DNA from: Vulcanimicrobiota bacterium
GTDB lineage: Bacteria; Vulcanimicrobiota; Xenobia; Xenobiales; JADMJV01
Direction: 5' to 3'
Length of the DNA stretch: 64,000 nucleotides
Assembly (NCBI GenBank): GCA_050250895.1
Contig: JBFWNU010000001.1
Coordinates: 2,022,210-2,086,209, forward strand
The notes below the pieces were generated by a model that saw nothing but the letters and a program-made list of their open reading frames with translations, ran no database searches and was not told where the DNA came from. The position numbers and the translations under genes are program-made. Below are positions 6,376 through 64,000 of this stretch, piece after piece. How positions within the stretch are numbered: position 1 is the first letter of the stretch; every line of letters begins with the position of its first letter.

Positions 6376-6888
6376 ATGGGTACCGACCGCCTCACCTCGA
6401 TGCTCGACGACGAGTATCTCGAAGACCCGCTCGAGATCGAGTTGGCCAGGGCCGAGCGTTATGGTCGACACATCGGTTTCATCTTGCTGGAGCCAGACTT
6501 CGGAGATCTGACCTCGACCATGGTGTACCAGGCTTTGAAGTATCTGGCCGCCGTCTGCCGCGAGCACACCCGCAAGGTGGATATCAAGGTGCGTTGGGGC
6601 AACTCGATCCTGATCGTCTTGCCCGAGACCGCTTCTGAGGGCCTCGAGGTGGCTGTCAAGAAGCTGACCGACGCCTTTTCCAGACAGAGCTTCGACCATC
6701 CCACCAATGGTCAACAGGTGGCCGGGCATCTGGCCGTAGCCAAAGCCGTCTTTCCTGGTTTCGAGAAGTCACCCGAAGTGAGCGAGCAACTCGGCCTCCG
6801 GCGCGGGTTGTTGCATTGTCTACGCCTGCAGCTTTCCCAGGAGCGGACGGGTACCGAAGTGGGTGAGTCGACCCCACCATCCGCTTAG
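6376..6888 (+). CDS. degenerate GGDEF-like (diguanylate-cyclase fold) domain protein. The catalytic GG(D/E)EF motif is replaced by RWGNS.
   Basis: ELARAERYGRHIGFILLEPD...VRWGNSILIVLPET aligns to the GGDEF pattern RYGRxFSLLMLDIDHF...RYGGEEFVVLLPET. An ATG start follows a Shine-Dalgarno sequence immediately after the stop of the upstream gene. Confidence 0.5.
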   Translation: MGTDRLTSMLDDEYLEDPLEIELARAERYGRHIGFILLEPDFGDLTSTMVYQALKYLAAVCREHTRKVDIKVRWGNSILIVLPETASEGLEVAVKKLTDAFSRQSFDHPTNGQQVAGHLAVAKAVFPGFEKSPEVSEQLGLRRGLLHCLRLQLSQERTGTEVGESTPPSA

Positions 6889-7290
6889 ACCTCCGGTCCC
6901 AACGTTGAGAGGGCGACCCTGGTAGTGAGCGCTGAATACCCGCATGACGTAGCGCTCGTCCCACTGGTGGATGGCCGCCTCGGTCTTGCCTTCTTTAGCC
7001 AGGTGCAGCGTCTTGCCATAGCAGGCCAGAAAACGACCCATCACCGGCATCGAGCCGCGGGGCAACAGGATCAGGTCGCCAAGGTTCAGGTGCTCGGGTT
7101 CGACCGGCTCGAGGTGCAGCTCGGACCCCACCGGCACGCAGCTGGGCATCTCTGAATAGTCGATCCTGAGGCGAGGCCTATAGTCCTGAGGGCTCGGGCG
7201 CCGTTTCTTGGGGGTCGGGGCCGGCTGCGGTTCGTCGCCCCAGAGTTCGGCCGCCTCGTCCTGTAGTTCGTGCCAGTCGAACTCACTCAT
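6820..7290 (-). CDS. hypothetical protein (MSEFDWHELQDEAAELWGDEPQP...)
   Basis: The ATG at 7290 overlaps the stop of the upstream lipoprotein gene (ATGAGTGA), indicating translational coupling. The ORF-track N-terminal extension to 7536 is Pro/Arg-rich and is probably not coding. The 3' end overlaps the convergent GGDEF-like gene by 69 nt. Confidence 0.45.
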   Translation of the reverse strand: MSEFDWHELQDEAAELWGDEPQPAPTPKKRRPSPQDYRPRLRIDYSEMPSCVPVGSELHLEPVEPEHLNLGDLILLPRGSMPVMGRFLACYGKTLHLAKEGKTEAAIHQWDERYVMRVFSAHYQGRPLNVGTGGLSGWWGRLTHFGTRPLLGKLQA

Positions 7291-7579
7291 GGTCGGTGGG
7301 CACGCTTTCGCTATCGTCGAGAAAGACCGGGGCGCCGTTGTTGAGATGGGAGTGTTCGCTGTGTCCCTGAGGCTCGAGGCGACCGCGCCAGCGGGCCGTC
7401 TCGGCCTCGGTCGGGCCGTTCTGCCAGACGCGTTCCAGGCCCGGCTCGACATGCAACTGGGGAGGGGAGAATACCTGTTGTTGAACGGGGACAATGGGGG
7501 CGGCCGGCCGGGGAGCGGTGCTCGGCGGGCCGGCACAACCGACCGTGGCCAGGATTAGCAACAGCCAAAATCTTCTCAC
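7283..7579 (-). CDS. small lipoprotein (MRRFWLLLILATVGCAGPPS...)
   Basis: Signal peptide with an LxGC-type lipobox. The gene is co-operonic with the downstream gene 6820..7290. Confidence 0.5.
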   Translation of the reverse strand: MRRFWLLLILATVGCAGPPSTAPRPAAPIVPVQQQVFSPPQLHVEPGLERVWQNGPTEAETARWRGRLEPQGHSEHSHLNNGAPVFLDDSESVPTDHE

Positions 7580-7609
7580 CTCTGCCTTATCGGCTCGTGG
7601 ACGAGAGTG

Positions 7610-8269
7610 TTAAGGCCGCGTCCGGGTGGCCGCGAACAGGTGTCCCGGACTCCCTTTGGGGGTCTTGCCGGCCCACAGCAGATCCTGGTCGAGTTCGAGG
7701 GCCGGTAGGCTGCGCAGCACATCCATGGCAGTCAGGTTCTCGCCTAGCACCAGGCCTTGCTCGATGACTCGCCCGAAGATGGCGCCTCCGCTCTGGCGCA
7801 GGTGGGGGTTGTCGGCCATGTTGATAAAGAGCTGGGTGGCCGCTCGCCGCTCCCCGTCTTCGGCCATGGCGATGGTGCCGGCCAGGGGCTCGAAGTAGTT
7901 GGGCTCGGCCTCGATGGTCTCGTTCTTCCAGTGGCGAAATTTGGGGTCGGGGTTGATGCCGAACTGGACCACGAAGTCGGGGACCACCCGCACCATGGTG
8001 GTGTCGTTGTAATAGCCCGAATCGACCAGTTCGAGAAAGCGAGCCACATGGCGCGGGGCGGCCACAGGATACAACGCAAGCGAAACCAAGCCGTGGCTGG
8101 TGGTCAGGTGGACCACGACCACCTCGCTCAACTCGGGAGCTTCGACCCCGACCAGGGCCTGCAGAGGCCCCTCTTTCGGGGGGGGCGGCGGCGCTTGGGG
8201 CGCCAGAAACCAGGCCGCCAATCCCACCACCATCACCAGCAGGGCCAGTTCTAGCAGGCGTCGGGTCAT
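7610..8269 (-). CDS. peptidyl-prolyl cis-trans isomerase, cyclophilin type, with an N-terminal TM or signal anchor
   Basis: Cyclophilin motifs are present: FHRVVPDFVVQFG, NMADNPHL, GGAIFGRVIEQGL. The real start is the ATG at 8269 (MTRRLLELALLV). It overlaps the upstream aldo/keto reductase stop as ATGA. Confidence 0.85.
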   Translation of the reverse strand: MTRRLLELALLVMVVGLAAWFLAPQAPPPPPKEGPLQALVGVEAPELSEVVVVHLTTSHGLVSLALYPVAAPRHVARFLELVDSGYYNDTTMVRVVPDFVVQFGINPDPKFRHWKNETIEAEPNYFEPLAGTIAMAEDGERRAATQLFINMADNPHLRQSGGAIFGRVIEQGLVLGENLTAMDVLRSLPALELDQDLLWAGKTPKGSPGHLFAATRTRP

Positions 8270-51131: not shown

Positions 51132-52724
51132 CTACTTGGCGTACTCAAAGGCCCGCGTTTCACGAATCACGGTGACTTTGATCTGGCCTGGGTACTGCAG
51201 CTCTTCTTCGATCTGGCGAGCGATCGAGCGGGCCAGGCGCGGGGCCGAGGCGTCGTCGACCACCTCGGGCTTGACGATGATGCGCACTTCGCGTCCTGCC
51301 TGGACGGCGTAGGTGTGCTCGACCCCCTCGAACGAATTGGCCACCACTTCGAGCCGCTCCAGTCGTTTGACATAGGTTTCGACGTTCTCGCGGCGGGCTC
51401 CGGGGCGGGCTGCCGAGATGGCGTCGGCGGCCTGGATCAGCATCGCCTCGACGGTGCGCTGCTCGACATCTTCGTGGTGGGCTTCTACGGCGTGGACCAC
51501 ACCCGGGGCCTCCCCGTATTTCTGGCACAGACGAGCGCCCACGATCGCGTGGGGCCCCTCGATTTCGGCCGTGACGGCCTTACCGATGTCGTGCAGCAGG
51601 CCGGCCCGGCGGGCCACCTCAGAGTCGGCTCCCAATTCCGCGGCCATTTGCCCGGCCAGAAACGACACTTCCAGCGAGTGAAAGAGGACGTTCTGGCCGT
51701 AGCTGGTGCGAAATCGCAGTCGTCCCAGCAGCTTGACCAGTTCAGGATGCACGCCGGTGAGGCCGGCTTCGAGCAGGGCCGCTTCGCCCTCTTCCACGAT
51801 GCGGTCGTCGATCTCCTTGCGCGACTTCTCTACCATCTCTTCGATACGAGCCGGATGAATGCGGCCATCGGCCACCAGCTTTTCCAGGGCCAGGCGGGCC
51901 ACTTCTCGGCGGATGGGGTCAAAGCAGGACAGGATCACCGCCTCAGGAGTGTCGTCAATGATGAGATCGACCCCGGTCATGCTCTCGAGCATGCGGATGT
52001 TGCGGCCCTCGCGTCCGATAATGCGCCCTTTCATCTCGTCAGTGGGCAGGTTGACCACGGAAACGGTCGACTCGACCACCTGATCGGCGGCCCACTTCTG
52101 AATCGAGGTGGTGATGATGCGACGAGCCTTGCGGTCGGCTTCGTCGCGAGCGGCTTCTTCAGCCTGGCGCACGCTGCGGGCCAGGGCCAACTCGTTTTCT
52201 TTTTCGACTCGCGAGAACAACTCTTGACGAGCTTGCTCGGAACTCATGCGGGCCGCCTCTTCGAGGCGGGCATCGACGGCCGCCCGGTCAGCTTCGGCCT
52301 GTTCTCGCAACTGGCGCAATTCGTCTTCGCGTTCGCCCAGGCGTTCTTCCCGTCGATCAAGCTGCTCTTGTTTGCGCTCGATGAACTCTTCGCGAGCGGC
52401 CAAGCGTTTCTCCAACTCGCGTAGCTCCTGGCGCCGCTCGTTATTTTCCTTCTCGGCCTCGGCACGCAAATCTTGGGCCTGGCGCTGGGCTTCAAGCAAG
52501 TGCTTGTCGCGCAGACCTTCGGCCTCGATCTTGGCCTTCTCCAGCAGATCCTGGGCGCCCTGACCCGAGGCCTCTTGAGCCTGACGCTCGACGCCTCGGC
52601 CCAACATGAAGCCAAGGGCGAGCACGATTGCGCCCACAATGCCGAGTACCACGTCGATGGCTGAAGACCTCCCTCGTTTGCTAAGAACGCCAAGAAAGCG
52701 TCGCTGGAGGTGGTCGCCACGCAA
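51132..52724 (-). CDS. rny: ribonuclease Y (N-terminal TM, coiled coil, KH domain, HD domain)
   Basis: Nearly the whole KH-HD core matches Bacillus RNase Y: ...[95 protein letters not shown]...[24 protein letters not shown]...LLHDIGKA...[18 protein letters not shown]. The start is uncertain, either TTG 52724 or GTG 52652. Confidence 0.9.
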
Positions 52725-57733: not shown

Positions 57734-58846
57734 ATGCAGGCCAGAATCGCGATTTTGGTGCTATTGTTGGCGGCCGCCGGCTGGACGGCCGATTGGGATA
57801 GTCTTAAGCAGGCCGGGGACGAAGCGCTCAAGTCCAAGGACTACGCGGCCGCCGTGAGCCAGTTCGAGAAGCTGGTGGATGCCTTTCCCGAGCGGGCCGC
57901 GGCCCACAACGCGCTGGGTTTTGCCTACTACATGAACGGGCAGTTCGAGCCGGCCGAAAAGCAGTTTGAAGCGGTGCTTGCCCGCGAGGCCAACAATCCG
58001 GCCGCCCAGCGCAATCTCTTGATGGTGGGAGGCCGATTGGCGTTAGAGATGGACTACGATCAGGCCATCTCCAAGCTTGACCGATTGGCCAGGCGGTTTC
58101 CCAAGAACCCAGAACTGGTGGCCCTCTCTTTCTATCGAGGCAAGCTCCACTTTTTGAACGGACGGACCGATCTCGGCCTGGCCGCCTGGCAGGAGGTTGC
58201 CCGGGCCCGCCCTCAGTCGGCCACGGCCGACTTTCTGACCGGTCTCGAGGCTCACCGCCGCGGTGACCTCGACCAGGCCCGCCAGTCGTATGAAAAGGCG
58301 CTGGAGAAGATGTCGGATGAGGTGGTGTGGGTCACCTATCTGGCCGCACTGCTCTATGAACAGGGTCATCCCGACTGGGGCCTGGCCCTGGCCGACCCTT
58401 TCCTGGCCGACAATCCCGGCTATGCCCACCTGCAAGTGTTGGCCTCGAAGCTCGACCAGAACAGGGCCCTGAGAATCCTGACCAAAGCCTCGGAAGGGGG
58501 GCTGCCCGGGGCCCAGCTCCAGATGGGAGCCCGCTTGCTGGGAGTCGAGATCGCCACGGCCCGCCGCGAACTGAGCGCCGCCTTAGGTCGCTCGGGAGCC
58601 CCTGCCGTCGTGGTGTTGGGCGATTCCGCCACCTTCATGTGGATCGACGACTTTCCCCTGGGCCCGCCTCCCATCGGCTGGTTCGTGAACCCCGGTACCC
58701 ACCGGCTGTTGGCTCGCAATCCCAAACGGGCCCCCTCGACGCGCGAGTTTAGCGTGGCCGCCGACAGCCTCAAGATCGCTCGCATCACCAGCGCCATCGA
58801 GTTGCTCGATCGGCCGCGCAAGGCCGAGCTGGTGCCTGCTCGCTAG
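57734..58846 (+). CDS. secreted TPR-repeat protein
   Basis: Signal peptide MQARIAILVLLLAAAGWTA followed by multiple TPR-like helices. ATG start. Confidence 0.7.
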   Translation: MQARIAILVLLLAAAGWTADWDSLKQAGDEALKSKDYAAAVSQFEKLVDAFPERAAAHNALGFAYYMNGQFEPAEKQFEAVLAREANNPAAQRNLLMVGGRLALEMDYDQAISKLDRLARRFPKNPELVALSFYRGKLHFLNGRTDLGLAAWQEVARARPQSATADFLTGLEAHRRGDLDQARQSYEKALEKMSDEVVWVTYLAALLYEQGHPDWGLALADPFLADNPGYAHLQVLASKLDQNRALRILTKASEGGLPGAQLQMGARLLGVEIATARRELSAALGRSGAPAVVVLGDSATFMWIDDFPLGPPPIGWFVNPGTHRLLARNPKRAPSTREFSVAADSLKIARITSAIELLDRPRKAELVPAR

Positions 58847-59763
58847 AAGTTCTCGCGGATGATATAGTCGCTGGCCGGCTGACCATTCCTGGCCGGCGTC
58901 GGAGCGGGCGCGGGCTTGGGCGGTGGCTCGACCGGCTTAGGCGGATCGGGCTTGACGGCCACCGGTGGGTCCTCGGCGATGGTCCAGTCAGGAGGGCGCT
59001 CGGGCTCGGCCGGGCTTGGAGCGGGCTCGAGCGGTGACTCCAGCACCACTGGCACTGGAGGTGGCTCGACTGCTTCGGTGGGCTGCTCGGCCGTGTCGGT
59101 GGGTTCGACTGCGAGGGGGGCGATGGTCTCCTCGGCCGACGGGTCGACCTCGGGCTCGACCACCGCCGCGGGTTCGACAGGCTCGGGCTCGACGACTTCA
59201 GGCGAGGCGTCGCCGACTCGCACGGTCGGCTCGGTATGCGGCGCGATCTGGTCGAGGGTGACATCGCTGCTGGGATCGGACGTTACGGAATTCTCGGGGG
59301 GCCAGAGCAGGCCCGCCACTACCCAGGCCAGAGCGAACATCACGAAGATGGTGCCCAGGTACCGTCCCCACGGGACCCCGCGCTCGAGGGGCTCAGGCTC
59401 GGGTGCCTCTTCGGCCCCAGACTCTGGCTCTGGTTCGACGGCCAGGACAGGTTCCACCTCGGGTTCTTTAGGGACGGGGGGAGGCGTCTCGGACTGGACC
59501 GATTGCAACTCGATCGAGGGCGGAACCCGCTCGGGGTCTTCGCTTGAGCGATAGAAGCCCTTCTTCATGGTCTCGGGAACCAGATCTTCGAGTTCTTCTT
59601 TGGTCTGCGCCTCGCGCTCGGAACGGGGAGGATACTGCAGCTCGAGGGTGGGCTTGTCGCCGGCTTTGTCCTGGTCCAGGCGAGGCCGCATCCGCGGCCG
59701 CTTGAGTTCGAGGTCGAGAAGGACCTTGGGCGGCTTGCCGTCTTTACTGGCGTCTTCGCTCAC
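58843..59763 (-). CDS. proline/glutamate-rich single-pass membrane protein (TonB-like linker without a TonB C-terminal domain)
   Basis: Cytoplasmic N-terminus, TM YLGTIFVMFALAWVVAGLLW, then EPxPVEP/PKPVEPPPKPAPAP repeats. GTG start, uncertain. Overlaps the convergent TPR gene by 4 nt. Confidence 0.5.
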   Translation of the reverse strand: MSEDASKDGKPPKVLLDLELKRPRMRPRLDQDKAGDKPTLELQYPPRSEREAQTKEELEDLVPETMKKGFYRSSEDPERVPPSIELQSVQSETPPPVPKEPEVEPVLAVEPEPESGAEEAPEPEPLERGVPWGRYLGTIFVMFALAWVVAGLLWPPENSVTSDPSSDVTLDQIAPHTEPTVRVGDASPEVVEPEPVEPAAVVEPEVDPSAEETIAPLAVEPTDTAEQPTEAVEPPPVPVVLESPLEPAPSPAEPERPPDWTIAEDPPVAVKPDPPKPVEPPPKPAPAPTPARNGQPASDYIIRENF

Positions 59764-59857
59764 TTTGGGTCCTCCTTTTCCGGTTCGGTCTCTGGCAGTT
59801 TTCTGGTGGGCCGTGGGCCTCTCCTCCTGTTGACGCGTGGCTTTGCCGAGGCATAGG

Positions 59858-59885
59858 TTGACGACTTGACATTAAAGTGTATAAT
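59858..59885 (+). promoter_or_regulatory. near-consensus sigma70-type promoter (TTGACG, 16-bp spacer, TATAAT) driving the leader of the HD-GYP/SARP regulator gene
   Basis: -35 TTGACG at 59858-59863 and -10 TATAAT at 59880-59885. Two hairpins follow downstream at 59901-59915 and 59923-59940. Confidence 0.45.
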
Positions 59886-59963
59886 CAACACGAAAAAGAG
59901 CGTCTTCAAGACGCCAAAAACGGTCGGGTCTGTTCCGACCCGGCAGAACCGAGCTATAGAACG

Positions 59964-60044
59964 ATGACAGCAGGAGAGATCCTTTTGTTCGCGGTGGCCG
60001 CGACACTGTGGGTGGCCACCTGCACCTTCTTCCGGACCGGATAG
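59964..60044 (+). CDS. candidate 26-codon hydrophobic leader or small ORF (MTAGEILLFAVAATLWVATCTFFRTG)
   Basis: ATG-to-TAG frame in the 5' leader between the promoter and the regulator start. A hairpin, GGGAaacaattgTCCC, directly precedes the regulator ATG. Confidence 0.2.
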   Translation: MTAGEILLFAVAATLWVATCTFFRTG

Positions 60045-60080
60045 AGGAAAATTCGAACAGCGGGAAACAATTGTCCCTTT

Positions 60081-62201
60081 ATGTCCGGGCAGCTGATTTC
60101 TCGATACAGTGATCTGGTCAAATCCCTGATCACTTTGCTCGAACTGCGCAATCCCTATAATATCGACCACTGCAAATTGGTCGCACGCTATTGCGATCTT
60201 ATTGCCCGCAAGGCCGACCTCGACCCCGCTGCCCGCACTCGGGTGGTGCAGGCGGCCGAGTTGCATACCCTCGGCGTGAGCCTGCAGATGGAAGAGAAGA
60301 AGCCCTATCAGGCGCTGCCCATCACTCAGCTGGGGCTAACGTCGGGCCGCGATGTTCCCATGCACATCCGCGAAGAGCACATCCTTCGCAAGGTGCTGGG
60401 CGGCATTGAAGGGCTCGAGGATTGCGTCGACGTGATCATTCAGCGCTATGAGTGGTTCGACGGCACGGGCTCGCTCTATGGATTGGCGGGGGATGCGATT
60501 TTGCCGGAGGGACGTTTGCTGGCCGTGGCTGACGCTTTCGTGGACCTGGCTACCCCCAAGAAGCACCGACCTCAAGAAACGACGCGGGTGGTGCTGGCTC
60601 GCATCATGGAGCAATCCGGCACGCAGTTCGACCCCCGCTACGTGGAAGCCCTGGCCGCAGTGGTCGAAGAAGAGGAGGGTCGCTGGAAAGCGGCCGGACG
60701 GGTCGAGCACTTCGAGACGGCGCGTTGTCGCCACTATCTCAATCTAGGCCACCTCTATATTGCTATCCACGAGACCCGCTGGGCTCTGCGATCCTATCTC
60801 AAAGCCGAAAAGATCGCGGTCGAGATGCAAGACCGCGGCCTCGAGCTGGGAGCCATTTCCGGCCAGGTGATGGTCTATTGCAACCGGGGCGAACTCGAGC
60901 GAGCCCGCGAGGCCCTGCAACGGGCCCGCACCCGCAGCCAATCCGAACGCGAGCGGCACGGTTATCACCTGATGTGGGGCCTGGTCGAGTGGCTGAGCGG
61001 ACGCCAGGAAAACGGCAAGCAGATTCTCGACGGGGTGGCCGAACATTACGAGAAGACGCGCAACGTGCCTGGCCTGGCCGCCTCGTTGGGTTTGCAAGCC
61101 AACATGCTTTTGATTCACCGCGGGGTCGATGACATCGAGCACAAGGAGTGCCTTAAACGCTTTCTGACCCTGGTGCGCGACCACGACCTGTTTGATGTGG
61201 TCGAGCGTTACCGCCCCTTCACTCTGCCGGTTTTTCTGTCAGCCGTGGTCAACGACTGCGAGTCGGTGACAGCCCGGGCCATGCTGACCCGCATGGGCGA
61301 GCCCTGCCACCGCGCCCTGCGCGAGCGTCTCGGGGATAGTCCGCCCAGCGAGTGGACCAGTATCCTCTTGCCCGAGCCGGTCATCCCTACCCCCGAGGCT
61401 CCGCCCAAAGTCACCTCGACCAACCACAACAGCTCGAAGAAACGGGTGTTCGTGCGCACTCTGGGCGGCTTTCGGCTGGAGTTCGGCGACAAAGAGGTGG
61501 CCGAAGACGATTGGCCCACCCAGAAGTCGCTGCGCCTGTTTGCTCATCTGGCCTCAGGCAAAGGCATCCCCCTGTCCGACAACTATCTCATGGAGACCTT
61601 CTGGCCCGACTCGACCCTCGAAAAGGCCCGCAACTCGCTGCGTAACGCGATTCACCAGATCCGCTCGGTGCTAAAAGAAGTGCTCGACACCCCCCCCGCC
61701 CAGGTGGTCGTGCGCAGCCGCAAAGCCGGCACCGTGGCCCTGGCTCTCGACTACGAGCTAGACCTCGAGCGCTTCGACGGGTTGTTGACCCAGGCCCAGA
61801 CTCTGGTCGACCAGGGTCAGAGCCAACCGGCCCTCGAAGCCGTCAAGGCGGCCCTGGTTCTCTACAAAGGCGATTTTCTCGAGGGCATCTACGAGGACTG
61901 GAGCGACGGCCTGCGGGTGCAATACAAAGAGGCCTATCTACGCGCGCTGGCCCTCTTGGCCCGCGCCTATCTCGACGGCGGCAATCCCGAGGCCGCCGAG
62001 ATCTCGGCGCGCAAGATTCTCTCCGTCGACGACCTGCGCGAAGACGCCCACGGCTTGCTCATCGAAGCCGTCAATTCCGACGGCCGCCCGGCCGAGGCGA
62101 TTCGCCTCTATGAAGAGGCGGTCGAGCTGTTCGAACGCGAAATCGGCATCGCCCCCGCCTCCCTCACTCGTTTACTCGAGAAAGTCGGCCTGCTGCTCTA
62201 A
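60081..62201 (+). CDS. multidomain regulator: degenerate HD-GYP domain, TPR-like region, and a C-terminal SARP-family (OmpR-like wHTH plus BTAD) DNA-binding module
   Basis: The HD-GYP fold is recognisable, but HD is replaced by HT (AAELHTLGVS) and HHE..GYP by QRY..SLY (QRYEWFDGTGSLYGL...AVADAFVDL...GTQFDP). The C-terminus ...VFVRTLGGFRLEFGDKEV...LRLFAHLASGKG...ALVLYKGDFLEGIYEDWSDGLRVQYKEAYLRAL... matches AfsR/DnrI SARP plus BTAD. Confidence 0.7.
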   Translation: MSGQLISRYSDLVKSLITLLELRNPYNIDHCKLVARYCDLIARKADLDPAARTRVVQAAELHTLGVSLQMEEKKPYQALPITQLGLTSGRDVPMHIREEHILRKVLGGIEGLEDCVDVIIQRYEWFDGTGSLYGLAGDAILPEGRLLAVADAFVDLATPKKHRPQETTRVVLARIMEQSGTQFDPRYVEALAAVVEEEEGRWKAAGRVEHFETARCRHYLNLGHLYIAIHETRWALRSYLKAEKIAVEMQDRGLELGAISGQVMVYCNRGELERAREALQRARTRSQSERERHGYHLMWGLVEWLSGRQENGKQILDGVAEHYEKTRNVPGLAASLGLQANMLLIHRGVDDIEHKECLKRFLTLVRDHDLFDVVERYRPFTLPVFLSAVVNDCESVTARAMLTRMGEPCHRALRERLGDSPPSEWTSILLPEPVIPTPEAPPKVTSTNHNSSKKRVFVRTLGGFRLEFGDKEVAEDDWPTQKSLRLFAHLASGKGIPLSDNYLMETFWPDSTLEKARNSLRNAIHQIRSVLKEVLDTPPAQVVVRSRKAGTVALALDYELDLERFDGLLTQAQTLVDQGQSQPALEAVKAALVLYKGDFLEGIYEDWSDGLRVQYKEAYLRALALLARAYLDGGNPEAAEISARKILSVDDLREDAHGLLIEAVNSDGRPAEAIRLYEEAVELFEREIGIAPASLTRLLEKVGLLL

Positions 62202-62305
62202 CGGGCCTTCGGCCCGACGGCGAAGCCGAAACACCTCAGCGAAACTGAAACAACGCGGCGAAGCCGCCCAGTGTTACGACGCGAAGCGTCGACTATCCCA
62301 AAACC

Positions 62306-62443
62306 TCGAGGTGAGCCAAAGCGAACCTCGCTCCTTCCTCACGAGCGAAGCGAAGTGCTCCTTCCTCACGAGCAAAGCGAGTGCTCCCCTCTCACGAGCG
62401 AAGCGAAGTGCTCCTTTCTCACGAGCAAAGCGAGTGCCTCGCC
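62306..62443. repeat. tandem direct-repeat array, four 26-27-nt units alternating between two variants (A-B-A-B, 53-nt super-period) plus a degenerate fifth unit. Each unit contains the mini-hairpin-forming core GCGAAGC.
   Basis: Unit 1 is 62338-62364, CTCACGAGCGAAGCGAAGTGCTCCTTC. Unit 2 is 62365-62390, CTCACGAGCAAAGCGAGTGCTCCCCT. Unit 3 is 62391-62417 (variant A again) and unit 4 is 62418-62443 (variant B). More GCGAAGC(G)-containing half-sites lie at 62215-62300. There are no spacers, so this is not a CRISPR array. Confidence 0.7.
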
Positions 62444-62528
62444 GGTTCGAGGATCTTTAGGCACGGCAACGAAGCAAGCTGCCGGTATGGGGAAATCCCC
62501 AGCTGAGTAAGAACGGAGTGGCCTTAGA

Positions 62529-64000
62529 ATGGATACAACCCAGGCAAGAATCGAATCGGCAAAGAGCGACCACGCCGAGCCCGATGTCGAAACCTTAGAA
62601 ACTCGAGAATGGCTGGACTCTCTCGACTATGTGTTAGCCCATAGCGGGCCTGAGAGAGTCATCGAGCTAATGGGCCAGCTGCAGGCTCACGCACAGCGCC
62701 ACGGCGTGACCTTCCCCTTCACAGCCAACACCCCGTACATCAACACCATCCCCCCGGACCGCCAGCCGCCCTACCCGGGCAGCCGCGAGATCGAGCGTCG
62801 CATCAAGAGCATCATTCGCTGGAACGCCATGGCCATGGTGGTCAGGGCCAACAAGAACGAGAGCGGCATCGGCGGGCACATCTCGACTTACGCTTCGGCC
62901 GCCACCTTGTATGAGGTCGCCTTTAACCACTTCTTGCGCGGCAAAGACGAAAACGGCGTGGGCGACATGGTCTACTTTCAGGGCCACGCTTCTCCGGGCA
63001 TCTACGCCCGCGCCTTTCTCGAGGGGCGACTCGATCAGGAGCAGCTCGAGAACTTTCGCCGAGAACTCAAGCCGGGCGGACTTTCCTCTTATCCGCATCC
63101 CTGGCTGATGCCCGACTTTTGGGAGTTTCCCACGGTGTCCATGGGTCTGGGGCCGATCATGGCCATCTACCAGGCCCGCTTCAACAAGTATCTGATCAAT
63201 CGTGGCCTGATGCCCGCCAGCGACCGCAAGGTGTGGGCCTTTTTGGGCGACGGCGAGACCGACGAGCCCGAGTGCCTGGGCTCGATGACCCTGGCCTCCC
63301 GCGAGAAGCTCGACAATCTGATCTTCGTGGTTAACTGCAATCTGCAGCGCCTCGACGGTCCGGTGCGCGGCAACGGCAAGATCATCCAAGAACTCGAAGC
63401 GGCCTTCCGCGGCGCCGGATGGAACGTCATCAAGGTCATCTGGGGCCACGATTGGGACGACCTCTACGCCCGCGATAAGGACGACTTGCTGGTCAGACGG
63501 GCCGGCGAGATCGTCGACGGCGAGTATCAGAAGTATGTGGTCGAAGACGGTGCTTACATCCGCGAACACTTCTTCGGCAAAGACCCGCGCCTGCTGGAAC
63601 TGGTCAAACATCTCTCGGATGAGCAGATTCACCGCATGCGGCGCGGCGGCCACGACCCCGAGAAGGTGCACGCCGCCTTCGCGGCGGCTCAGCGGGCCAA
63701 GGGGCCAACCGTCATTCTGGCCAAGACCATCAAAGGTTACGGCCTAGGCGAAGCCGGCGAGGGCCGCAACATCACCCACCAGCAGAAGAAACTCAACGAA
63801 GACGAACTTAGCTTCTTCCGCACTCGCTTTGGCATCCCCATCAGTGATGAAGAGGTGACCAAAGCGCCGTTCTACCGTCCCGCTGACGACAGCCAGGAGA
63901 TGATTTATCTCAAAGAGCGTCGCCAGGCCCTGGGCGGTTCGCTGCCCAAGCGGGTCAACCAGTGCAAGCCGCTCGAGATGCCGAGCGACAAGTGCTTCGA
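62529..64000 (+). CDS. aceE: pyruvate dehydrogenase E1 component (homodimeric AceE type), 5' ~490 codons. The gene continues past the window end.
   Basis: ...TPYINTIPPDRQPPYPGSREIERRIKSIIRWNAMAMVVRANK...GGHISTYASAATLYEVAFNHF...YFQGHASPGIYARAFLEGRL...LSSYPHPWLMPDFWEFPTVSMGLGPIMAIYQARF...FLGDGETDEPE...NLIFVVNCNLQRLDGPVRGNGKIIQELE...WNVIKVIWG... matches AceE nearly block for block. The ORF track does not list it because there is no stop inside the window. Confidence 0.9.
   Translation, partial: MDTTQARIESAKSDHAEPDVETLETREWLDSLDYVLAHSGPERVIELMGQLQAHAQRHGVTFPFTANTPYINTIPPDRQPPYPGSREIERRIKSIIRWNAMAMVVRANKNESGIGGHISTYASAATLYEVAFNHFLRGKDENGVGDMVYFQGHASPGIYARAFLEGRLDQEQLENFRRELKPGGLSSYPHPWLMPDFWEFPTVSMGLGPIMAIYQARFNKYLINRGLMPASDRKVWAFLGDGETDEPECLGSMTLASREKLDNLIFVVNCNLQRLDGPVRGNGKIIQELEAAFRGAGWNVIKVIWGHDWDDLYARDKDDLLVRRAGEIVDGEYQKYVVEDGAYIREHFFGKDPRLLELVKHLSDEQIHRMRRGGHDPEKVHAAFAAAQRAKGPTVILAKTIKGYGLGEAGEGRNITHQQKKLNEDELSFFRTRFGIPISDEEVTKAPFYRPADDSQEMIYLKERRQALGGSLPKRVNQCKPLEMPSDKCF

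Follow-up and report, generated by a model that had tools for sequence, protein, structure and literature searches.

A predicted one-component regulator that joins a degenerate HD-GYP domain to a C-terminal SARP module, and its structured leader, in a Vulcanimicrobiota genome

The stretch of DNA analysed here (the window; 64,000 nucleotides of contig JBFWNU010000001.1 from a Vulcanimicrobiota bacterium, assembly GCA_050250895.1) encodes near its right end a 706-residue protein, the regulator, with a degenerate HD-GYP domain at its N-terminus and a SARP module, consisting of a winged helix-turn-helix (wHTH) and a bacterial transcriptional activator domain (BTAD), at its C-terminus. With moderate confidence in the explanation as a whole, its RNA leader included, we read the gene as a one-component transcription factor in which the HD-GYP domain would act as the sensor and the SARP module as the output. 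The regulator is a degenerate branch, without a receiver (REC) domain, of an uncharacterised HD-GYP-TPR-SARP group, and nothing about it is surprising in kind.

Domain order and catalytic residues of the regulator

The gene and its parts, as placed by database searches, an AlphaFold2 (AF2) model and Foldseek searches of the PDB, are as follows.

60081..62201, plus strand: regulator gene, 706 aa (list of open reading frames (ORFs), Pfam, NCBIfam; about 75 full-length homologues, 42-96% identity)
60081..60674, plus strand: degenerate HD-GYP domain with N-terminal stalk helix, aa 1-198 (Pfam, PDB alignments, AF2, Foldseek)
60690..61370, plus strand: middle region of TPR-like repeats, all helical, aa 204-430 (helices and pLDDT of the AF2 model, TPR superhelices matched by Foldseek, TPR_12 in relatives)
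61446..61760, plus strand: OmpR-type wHTH of the SARP module, aa 456-560 (Trans_reg_C, NCBIfam AfsR, structural matches)
61761..62183, plus strand: BTAD, aa 561-701 (Pfam PF03704, Foldseek)

An original prediction, made from the letters of the window, had proposed HD-GYP, TPR and C-terminal SARP parts in this order, and Pfam, NCBIfam, AF2 and Foldseek all bore it out. In Pfam, HD_5 matched aa 15-186 (E 8e-16; 58.7 bits vs. a cut-off of 27.2) and BTAD (PF03704) matched aa 560-700 (E 4e-22), both above cut-off, with Trans_reg_C at aa 480-536 just below its own (24.5 vs. 26.2 bits). The wHTH was nevertheless taken as confirmed at this location because the AF2 model and the Foldseek matches to AfsR and EmbR place it there. 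NCBIfam aligned aa 4-209 to an HD-GYP response-regulator model and aa 448-698 to the SARP part of AfsR. The AF2 model, built on 61 family members (pLDDT 88.7, pTM 0.77), resolved an HD-GYP domain with its stalk helix (1-198), about 11 TPR-like helices (204-430), a disordered linker (438-451), a β-sheet/winged-helix unit (456-560) and the BTAD (561-701). At the N-terminal end, Foldseek matched DvhD, PA4781 and PmGH; at the C-terminal end, it matched the SARP module of AfsR (TM 0.82, range 0.80-0.83) and EmbR. The TPR region, an all-helical repeat in the model, gave only faint Pfam matches in the regulator itself, and the homologous region of distant full-length relatives gave significant TPR_12 matches. 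Pfam found no Response_reg match in the regulator, and an in-frame TAG 39 nt upstream bounds the ORF.

The original prediction had also held that the catalytic residues of the HD-GYP domain were lost, with HT and SLY in place of HD and GYP. For comparison we used the metal ligands of PmGH (4MCW), which we take to be E185, H189, H221, D222, H250, H276, H277 and D305, a numbering that agrees with the phmmer alignment at an offset of 6. At these eight positions the regulator has Y26, H30, H62, T63, H100, R122, Y123 and D151. The HT (H62-T63) and SLY (S131-L132-Y133) aligned exactly with the HD and GYP of PmGH, V-cGAP3 and DvhD. The HD aspartate (D222) is T in 71 of 71 full-length orthologues; the E185 position is Y or F across the family (Y26 here); the HHE motif reads R122-Y123-E124, with the R invariant and H, Y or N next to it in orthologues; and the H250 position is mostly Q among the 71 orthologues. 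The lysine of HDxGK is V66 in the regulator and V, L or I throughout the family. Counted from its glycine, GYP corresponds to G130-S131-L132, and to [G/A]S[L/I] in the family, with S in 70 of 72 sequences. Altogether, the regulator has other residues at four of the eight metal-ligand positions, at the HDxGK lysine and at the GYP tyrosine, and these replacements are fixed family-wide. The predicted loss is therefore real, and, as far as the alignments tell, the fold is no longer able to build the metal centre for phosphodiester hydrolysis and its degeneracy is ancient.

The ligands H189, H221 and D305 of PmGH are retained in the family (H30, H62 and D151 in the regulator). HD-superfamily enzymes have four ligands at their first metal site; with three of them still present, a weak phosphodiesterase or phosphohydrolase working with a single metal could be imagined. 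We regard this as very improbable: the HD aspartate, the N-terminal glutamate, one or both HHE histidines and the lysine are all replaced family-wide, and DvhD, which has comparable losses, was inactive with any metal tested (PMC13090378).

Sensor function and family of the regulator

The closest structural counterpart suggests a different use for such a domain. DvhD of Desulfovibrio vulgaris (PDB 9RBZ/9RC0) is a non-catalytic HD-GYP receptor for cyclic di-GMP (c-di-GMP) (PMC13090378, 2026); it has SQ for HD and MN for HH, shows no phosphodiesterase activity and binds c-di-GMP without metal at a Kd of ~0.1 µM (PMC13090378). It was the best PDB match to the regulator over aa 12-198, both by sequence (E 2e-14) and by structure. 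Like the regulator, DvhD is without the HD dyad and the double-His motif, and both have the stalk helix and a basic P-[RK]-x-[YH]-R motif, which contacts c-di-GMP in DvhD. The DvhD contacts Y523, M646, R650, Y652 and R653 align to Y26, L156, K160, H162 and R163, all conserved in the family, so that five of nine canonical-site contacts are retained or conservatively replaced. The two proteins differ in their surroundings: DvhD is a membrane receptor (dCache-TM-PAS-HD-GYP) whose output is the control of a periplasmic protease and which keeps GYP and Glu668, whereas the HD-GYP domain of the regulator is N-terminal and cytoplasmic, has GSL for GYP and Ser for the Glu, and is followed by a DNA-binding module. 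Catalytic HD-GYP proteins (PmGH, 4MCW; PA4781, 4R8Z; V-cGAP3, 5Z7C) share the fold, but differ from the regulator, as do RpfG-type proteins, in the four ligands, the lysine and the GYP that it has replaced and in the REC domain that it is missing. HD-GYP domains are normally C-terminal, as output domains (10.1101/2021.11.05.467447); here the domain is N-terminal and presumably the input.

A sensor role is plausible because the catalytic replacements are family-wide and DvhD provides a direct precedent. In our proposal the pocket of the dead domain would be a ligand-binding or switch module, most likely for a cyclic dinucleotide or a related anionic nucleotide, and the stalk helix, together with the TPR-like middle, would relay the signal to the wHTH-BTAD module. 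The AfsR precedent suggests that the module would attach to direct repeats at a promoter and bring in RNA polymerase.

The main alternative for the protein is that the degenerate HD-GYP domain binds no small molecule and serves as a dimerisation or protein-protein scaffold, with control exerted by partner proteins through the TPR region or by expression level. The HD-GYP census describes inactive HD-GYP proteins that work by protein-protein contacts (10.1101/2021.11.05.467447), the same role has been proposed for inactive RpfG-family proteins, and DvhD's HD-GYP domain is itself a dimerisation module. The large TPR-like module of the regulator and its lack of several DvhD c-di-GMP contacts would also fit a scaffold. 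Against this, the conservation of the pocket speaks more for a ligand site than for a mere scaffold: among sequences only 42-96% identical to the query, some ten positions with polar or charged residues do not vary (H30, H62, R90, R97, D151, T158-P159-K160, H162, R163 and Q182; T63 and R122 also belong to this invariant, largely basic pocket), and the PKxHR motif corresponds to phosphate and base contacts in DvhD. We consider a pure scaffold possible, though clearly the lesser prospect.

Several observations nonetheless weigh against the sensor reading as we have stated it. GYP Tyr621 of DvhD is S131 in the regulator and the guanine-specifying Glu668 is S179; DvhD K582 and L577 fall in an unreliably aligned loop with a family-specific insertion (QMEEKKP). 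With these four canonical-site residues not retained, c-di-GMP binding is not predictable from sequence. SARPs bind heptameric direct repeats that overlap the −35 of their target promoters; no classical 11-nt-spaced heptamers of this kind were found. The suggestion in the original prediction that the domain senses c-di-GMP or another ligand is accordingly borne out in its first part, a non-catalytic sensor, which the degeneracy and the DvhD precedent support well; this support does not extend to c-di-GMP or to any other particular ligand.

A 170-aa ORF at 6376-6888 of the window (plus strand) gave a weak GGDEF (diguanylate cyclase) match (28.1 bits vs. a cut-off of 23.8) and is the sole hint within the window of c-di-GMP synthesis. 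In locus L020, a gene for a protein with PilZ, a c-di-GMP-binding domain, lies at 7348-7686, directly downstream of a regulator orthologue of 65% identity; the spacer between the two carries a GAGGATCT box on the minus strand (7162-7169).

Clustered at 90% identity, the family of the regulator amounts to about 75 groups that are 42-96% identical to the query; beyond these, scores fall sharply. Its named members come from metagenome-assembled genomes (MAGs) of Eremiobacteraeota, Xenobia or Vulcanimicrobiota, or from MAGs labelled just 'bacterium'; one MAG, BWSM_10, has two paralogues (L002 and L005). The contig CAYRFU010000098.1 (L001), which carries a 79%-identical orthologue, is labelled 'uncultured Burkholderiales bacterium', probably through a binning or labelling error. 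In an exhaustive profile search of 1.8 billion representatives, about nine clusters (at 50% identity) belonged to the family, and at least ten clusters of 820-860-aa proteins were collinear with the whole query. Very many proteins in this search had a SARP module at the C-terminal end, as did most of the top SARP-module matches.

Among these relatives, Pfam found REC + HD_5 + TPR + BTAD in L028, L029, P0128, P0141, P0143 and P0184, HD_5 + TPR + BTAD without REC in P0149, and AAA/STAND + TPR + C-terminal wHTH-BTAD in P0134, P0137, P0154 and L017. The REC-HD-GYP-TPR-SARP or HD-GYP-TPR-SARP set (L028, L029, P0128-P0133, P0141, P0143, P0149 and P0153), which is uncharacterised, was collinear with the regulator over aa 5-700 at 26-33% identity. 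Most of the set have an N-terminal receiver and their HD, HHE and GYP are mostly intact, in contrast to the receiver-less, degenerate regulator family; those with the receiver start with the layout of RpfG-type response regulators. HD_5 scored 106-145 bits in the 820-860-aa REC relatives, most of which retain HD, HHE and GYP. Judging by these intact motifs, such relatives may be phosphodiesterase-regulators in earnest. Because the collinear REC relatives mostly keep the three motifs, we read the regulator family as a branch of an older RpfG-like REC-HD-GYP-TPR-SARP group that would have lost its receiver and then its catalytic residues.

How unusual the regulator looks depends on what it is compared with. 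It shares a contiguous OmpR-type wHTH and BTAD with the SARPs AfsR (8HVR, 8K60), EmbR (2FEZ) and ActII-ORF4/DnrI/RedD and, by analogy, likely their activation mechanism as well (direct repeats, RNA polymerase contact). It differs from described SARPs in that its module is C-terminal (aa 456-701 of 706), behind a sensor, and occurs in Eremiobacterota. COG3947 'SAPR family' response regulators, which we take to be REC-wHTH-BTAD proteins, and the STAND/AAA-TPR-SARP proteins likewise have a C-terminal SARP module after an N-terminal signalling domain, but are without HD-GYP. JGI calls several orthologues 'two-component SAPR family response regulator', which is a misnomer because the regulator family is without a receiver domain. 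A review of SARPs describes their domains as only N-terminal and the family as exclusively actinobacterial (PMC10972967), and the HD-GYP census mentions no DNA-binding fusion (10.1101/2021.11.05.467447). The architecture, called unusual in the original prediction, is so relative to the characterised Streptomyces SARPs (PMC10972967), but not relative to the profile search, where most top SARP-module matches were C-terminal and the same layout occurs in relatives that keep HD, HHE and GYP, with or without a receiver. The HD-GYP-TPR-SARP layout is unstudied, yet neither rare nor limited to the gene in the window.

Promoter and leader of the regulator gene

Upstream of the regulator, the following elements were located; L019, used for comparison, is a 4.8-kb contig of an Eremiobacteraeota MAG whose regulator protein is 96% identical to that of the window.

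59858..59885, plus strand: sigma-70-type promoter, TTGACG-16-TATAAT (score 11/12; window scan, L019 comparison)
59899..59915, plus strand: leader hairpin 1, GCGUCUU-CAA-AAGACGC, 6-8 nt from the predicted 5′ end
59923..59944, plus strand: leader hairpin 2, a GC-rich 8-bp stem, kept in L019 with a loop 1 nt shorter
59964..60044, plus strand: 26-codon hydrophobic upstream ORF (uORF), MTAGEILLFAVAATLWVATCTFFRTG (ORF list)
59970..60077, no strand assigned: 108-nt block identical in the window and L019, save for a 1-nt insertion in L019 near 60050 (alignment)
60043..60056, plus strand: block D, a box resembling a Shine-Dalgarno (SD) sequence, TAGAGGAAAATTCG, ~30 nt upstream of the ATG (seven orthologous intergenic regions aligned)
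60061..60103, plus strand: start-codon stem-loop, 15 bp including three G.U pairs (folding, L019 comparison)

The near-consensus promoter of the original prediction was present in its place. Across both strands of the 64-kb window, a score of 11/12 or better is reached at just one other place, whereas shuffled sequences gave 0.08 such sites, and L019 retains both hexamers (TTGACC-16-TATAAT) in intergenic DNA that is otherwise 73-83% identical. These comparisons provide good indirect evidence that the promoter is strong and genuine. Transcription is predicted to start at ~59892, leaving a 5′ leader of ~190 nt. The second such site in the window, TTGACA-17-TAGAAT (52865, minus strand), lies just upstream of a gene for RNase Y, whose ORF (51132-52724, minus strand) contains RNase_Y_N, KH and HD domains.

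The leader is conserved beyond what the neighbouring coding sequence would lead one to expect. The regulator genes of the window and L019 are 86.8% identical in DNA, diverge by 33% at third codon positions and show at least 3 differences in every 81-nt segment (mean 10.6). By comparison, no identical run in the ~5 kb aligned is longer than the 108-nt block, the next two being 56 and 52 nt. The block takes in the uORF with its stop codon, as well as block D and the start-codon hairpin's 5′ arm. Both stem-loops that had been claimed at the 5′ end are present, and hairpin 1 contains a compensatory change (GCGTC..GACGC in the window, GCGCC..GGCGC in L019). The hairpin said to abut the main ATG also exists, but is better described as an interrupted 15-bp stem (60061-60103; −14.7 kcal/mol, z about −2) that holds the AUG (60081-60083) in its 10-nt loop. 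All five differences between the window and L019 in this region fall at unpaired positions, and the L019 version is the more stable (−18.9 kcal/mol). The three G.U pairs imply that the stem could form only in plus-strand RNA. From these features, a structured and constrained 5′ leader is supported.

One element of the leader is held in common with the other aligned orthologues. Block D, with its SD-like core GAGGAAAATT at 60045-60054, has an equivalent, T[G/A]GAGGAAATTT or AAAGGATTTT, ~22-38 nt before the start in seven of seven aligned loci of the clade at 62% identity, and a similar box occurs in L001. The predicted partner of its GAGG in the window is the CCUU at the 3′ end of the uORF; in L004, L023 and L026, block D is predicted to pair with block C, AGAUCCUC. 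Otherwise, the upstream regions of orthologues at 55-65% identity are unrelated to the leader, and L001, which has the same divergent neighbour as the window, has merely ~50-60 nt of intergenic DNA. In a BLAST search of the window and all 45 fetched loci, the leader was found in L019 and nowhere else. Rfam 15 (59600-60300, both strands, E ≤10) contained no curated RNA family that matched the leader; its two sub-threshold matches, both on the minus strand, were to terminator regions or 3′ ends of small RNAs (sRNAs) (E 2 and 5.7).

The original prediction went further and saw in this region a leader-peptide or attenuator type of control. The 26-codon hydrophobic ORF on which this was based is present (59964-60044). 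In its most specific form, this model has translation of the uORF, or stalling on it, control the regulator, ribosomes at the uORF 3′ end melting the CCUU-GAGG (box D) hairpin and remodelling the start-codon hairpin. The ORF is indeed intact in both leader-bearing genomes (80 of 81 nt identical, the sole change being synonymous), within it an AGGAG is found 8 nt ahead of the in-frame TTG at 59985, and hairpins are predicted within and at the end of the ORF, one of them sequestering box D. However, its ATG has no SD sequence, its peptide contains no regulatory codon runs, and no terminator-like site was found on the plus strand of 59500-62700, hence none after the uORF; within 59964-60081 the plus strand has no hairpin with a T-run, and the nearby terminator-like sites are on the minus strand, upstream of the uORF. 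Nor is the ORF conserved: among orthologous loci with readable upstream sequence it was found in L019 and in none of L001-L006 and L020-L026, which include the 79% orthologue with its short intergenic region. At 33% third-position divergence, ~9 synonymous changes would be expected where one is seen; such frozen synonymous sites point to constraint on the nucleotide level, in RNA or DNA, rather than to selection on the peptide. An open frame of 26 codons is, besides, not unlikely by chance in GC-rich sequence. The leader-peptide idea, the source of the locus's more exotic look, was therefore not upheld. We think control through the uORF rather unlikely and the ORF probably incidental to the RNA element, or at most of help in opening it.

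Two further origins or uses of the uORF were considered and rejected. A segment of its peptide (GEILLFAVAATLWVATCTFFRTG) aligns with residues 116-138 of AceE at 9 of 23 identities (E 0.15 against a single subject), with no similarity in the DNA, and was put down to chance. The uORF shares its frame with the regulator in the window, where TAG and 12 sense codons separate them; read-through into the regulator was dismissed on account of the 1-nt insertion in L019 (GAGGAAGAATTCG), which breaks the frame.

The 5′ hairpins can also be read on the opposite strand. The conserved leader would then act on the minus strand, where the hairpins would serve the divergent proline-rich gene as upstream intrinsic terminators or as an attenuator or, in a variant, form the 3′ end of an antisense small RNA over the regulator start region. 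Three of the four terminator-like matches in 59500-62700 are these two hairpins on the minus strand; the only weak Rfam matches, to sRNA 3′ ends, are also on that strand; the stem and T-run of hairpin 1 are kept in L019; and the hairpins lie ~135 nt upstream of the proline-rich gene's GTG, which follows a strong SD sequence, AAGGAGGA. On the other hand, the number of terminator-like matches is not above that in shuffles, the T-run of hairpin 2 is disrupted in L019, the three G.U pairs of the start-codon hairpin become A.C mismatches on the minus strand, and this strand folds less well (z −1.30 vs. −2.24). Convincing minus-strand promoters were lacking: the best candidates, which were rejected as promoters for an antisense RNA, score 8/12 and lie within conserved coding sequence. 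Both minus-strand variants taken together seem to us about as doubtful as control through the uORF.

Two other origins were considered for this region. One takes the hairpins as terminators left over from an ancestral regulator-to-proline-rich arrangement. It was not supported: in L003, L004 and L026 the intergenic regions between the two genes carry no similar hairpins, and what is conserved there is a promoter-like CTTGTTTT-N17-TAAGAT. The other starts from a 12-nt inverted repeat, CTCTCCTCCTGT (59819-59830) and ACAGCAGGAGAG (59967-59978), whose arms enclose the promoter together with the two 5′ hairpins and could mark the ends of a MITE-like insertion. This reading was set aside, as the repeat is close to what chance would give (~0.2 such pairs expected in 400 nt) and is only partly kept in L019.

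The reading that we prefer for the leader is thus the one on the plus strand, in which the regulator would be translated from an mRNA with a ~190-nt structured leader, transcribed from the sigma-70-type promoter. In mRNA decay of the Firmicutes (RNase Y) type, 5′ stem-loops are protective, and, with RNase Y encoded in this organism, the two 5′ hairpins probably stabilise the transcript. Control would most likely be exerted at translation initiation, as there is no SD sequence next to the regulator AUG, the AUG lies in a hairpin loop and box D is paired with a CU-rich partner. Some features of the leader count against this reading. Box D, 30 nt from the AUG, is too distant for an ordinary SD sequence, and the z-score for plus-strand folding is modest. 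An A-run precedes each 5′ hairpin on the plus strand, which on the minus strand gives a stem followed by a T-run and fits a terminator at least equally well. Protein scans found no relatives at 79-96% identity in GTDB genomes and none above 68% in JGI metagenomes, so that conservation of the leader rests on the single comparison of the window with L019.

Neighbouring genes and implications for the family

The regulator gene has Hsp20 and TPR genes among its upstream neighbours; its nearest neighbour on that side is divergent.

58843-59763, minus strand: gene for a proline/glutamate-rich protein, 306 aa, with one predicted transmembrane helix, a GTG start and the SD sequence noted above

The proline-rich protein has no Pfam match and evolves fast (~62% amino acid identity to L019, compared with 96% for the regulator and 98% for AceE). 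Downstream, an aceE-like gene for pyruvate dehydrogenase (PDH) E1 starts at 62529 and extends past the end of the window. A homologue of the proline-rich gene adjoins the regulator in the window, L019 and L001-L004, and aceE adjoins it in the window, L019, L002-L004, L006, L023, L025 and L026. In the comparison of the window with L002-L004, L006, L023 and L026, aceE, the regulator and, wherever it could be looked for, the proline-rich gene remain neighbours, but the orientation of the regulator gene is reversed: the window and L019 have proline-rich (−), regulator (+), aceE (+), whereas the 62%-identity clade has aceE (−), regulator (+), with the proline-rich gene (+) after the regulator (+) in L002-L004 and L026. 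From this conserved linkage, the flanking aceE-like gene and the gene for the proline-rich membrane protein are the most likely candidate targets of the regulator. Against this, linkage is missing in L001, L005 and L020-L022, in L001 for aceE only.

The DNA ahead of aceE contains conserved motifs of its own. In nine of nine aceE-linked loci, the aceE start is preceded at a distance of 47-80 nt by an invariant 9-mer, CGAGGATCT, with a CCGAAGG-like (CGAAGG) box exactly 22 nt downstream of it (23 nt in L026); the pair occupies 62448-62475 in the window and 4293-4320 in L019. The 9-mer is rare, with two copies in 64 kb (0.9 expected). Between the regulator stop and the aceE start, and before the 9-mer in both the window and L019, there is also a 27-nt tandem repeat with the consensus CAAAGCGAAGTGCTCCTTTCTCACGAG (62317-62437), each unit of which has a CU-rich stretch and CGAAG/CGAGC motifs. 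The array has ~4.5 copies in the window and merely ~2 in L019, so that copy number differs between close relatives. The CGAGGATCT/CGAAGG pair may be an operator or a 5′-UTR element; we call it and the repeats candidate operators with no claim that the regulator binds them. A partial copy of CGAGGATCT in the opposite orientation, AGATCCTTT, lies within the uORF (59977-59985).

At its most far-reaching, the locus would encode the first known transcription factor whose receptor for a cyclic dinucleotide (c-di-GMP or cGAMP) is a dead HD-GYP domain, with SARP activation coupled to it and expression of the gene itself gated by a new cis-regulatory RNA in the 5′ leader. We hold this full combination to be unlikely. 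If true, second-messenger levels would be directly coupled to SARP-type promoters, possibly those of aceE-like and membrane-protein genes. HD-GYP domains have been known as c-di-GMP phosphodiesterases that form the output of signalling proteins, and only recently was a dead one, that of DvhD, found to be a high-affinity c-di-GMP receptor. A conserved family with such a domain as the input of a DNA-binding activator would carry the receptor idea over to transcription control, and the DvhD precedent makes the c-di-GMP receptor hypothesis directly testable. The searches show SARP modules to be widespread as C-terminal output domains, against the actinobacterial, N-terminal picture of the review. 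Between REC-HD-GYP-TPR-SARP proteins that look active and the degenerate, receiver-less form there is a graded series, which offers a natural experiment in the change from enzyme to sensor, and the family would provide an entry point into signalling in Eremiobacterota/Xenobia, a phylum almost without cultured members.

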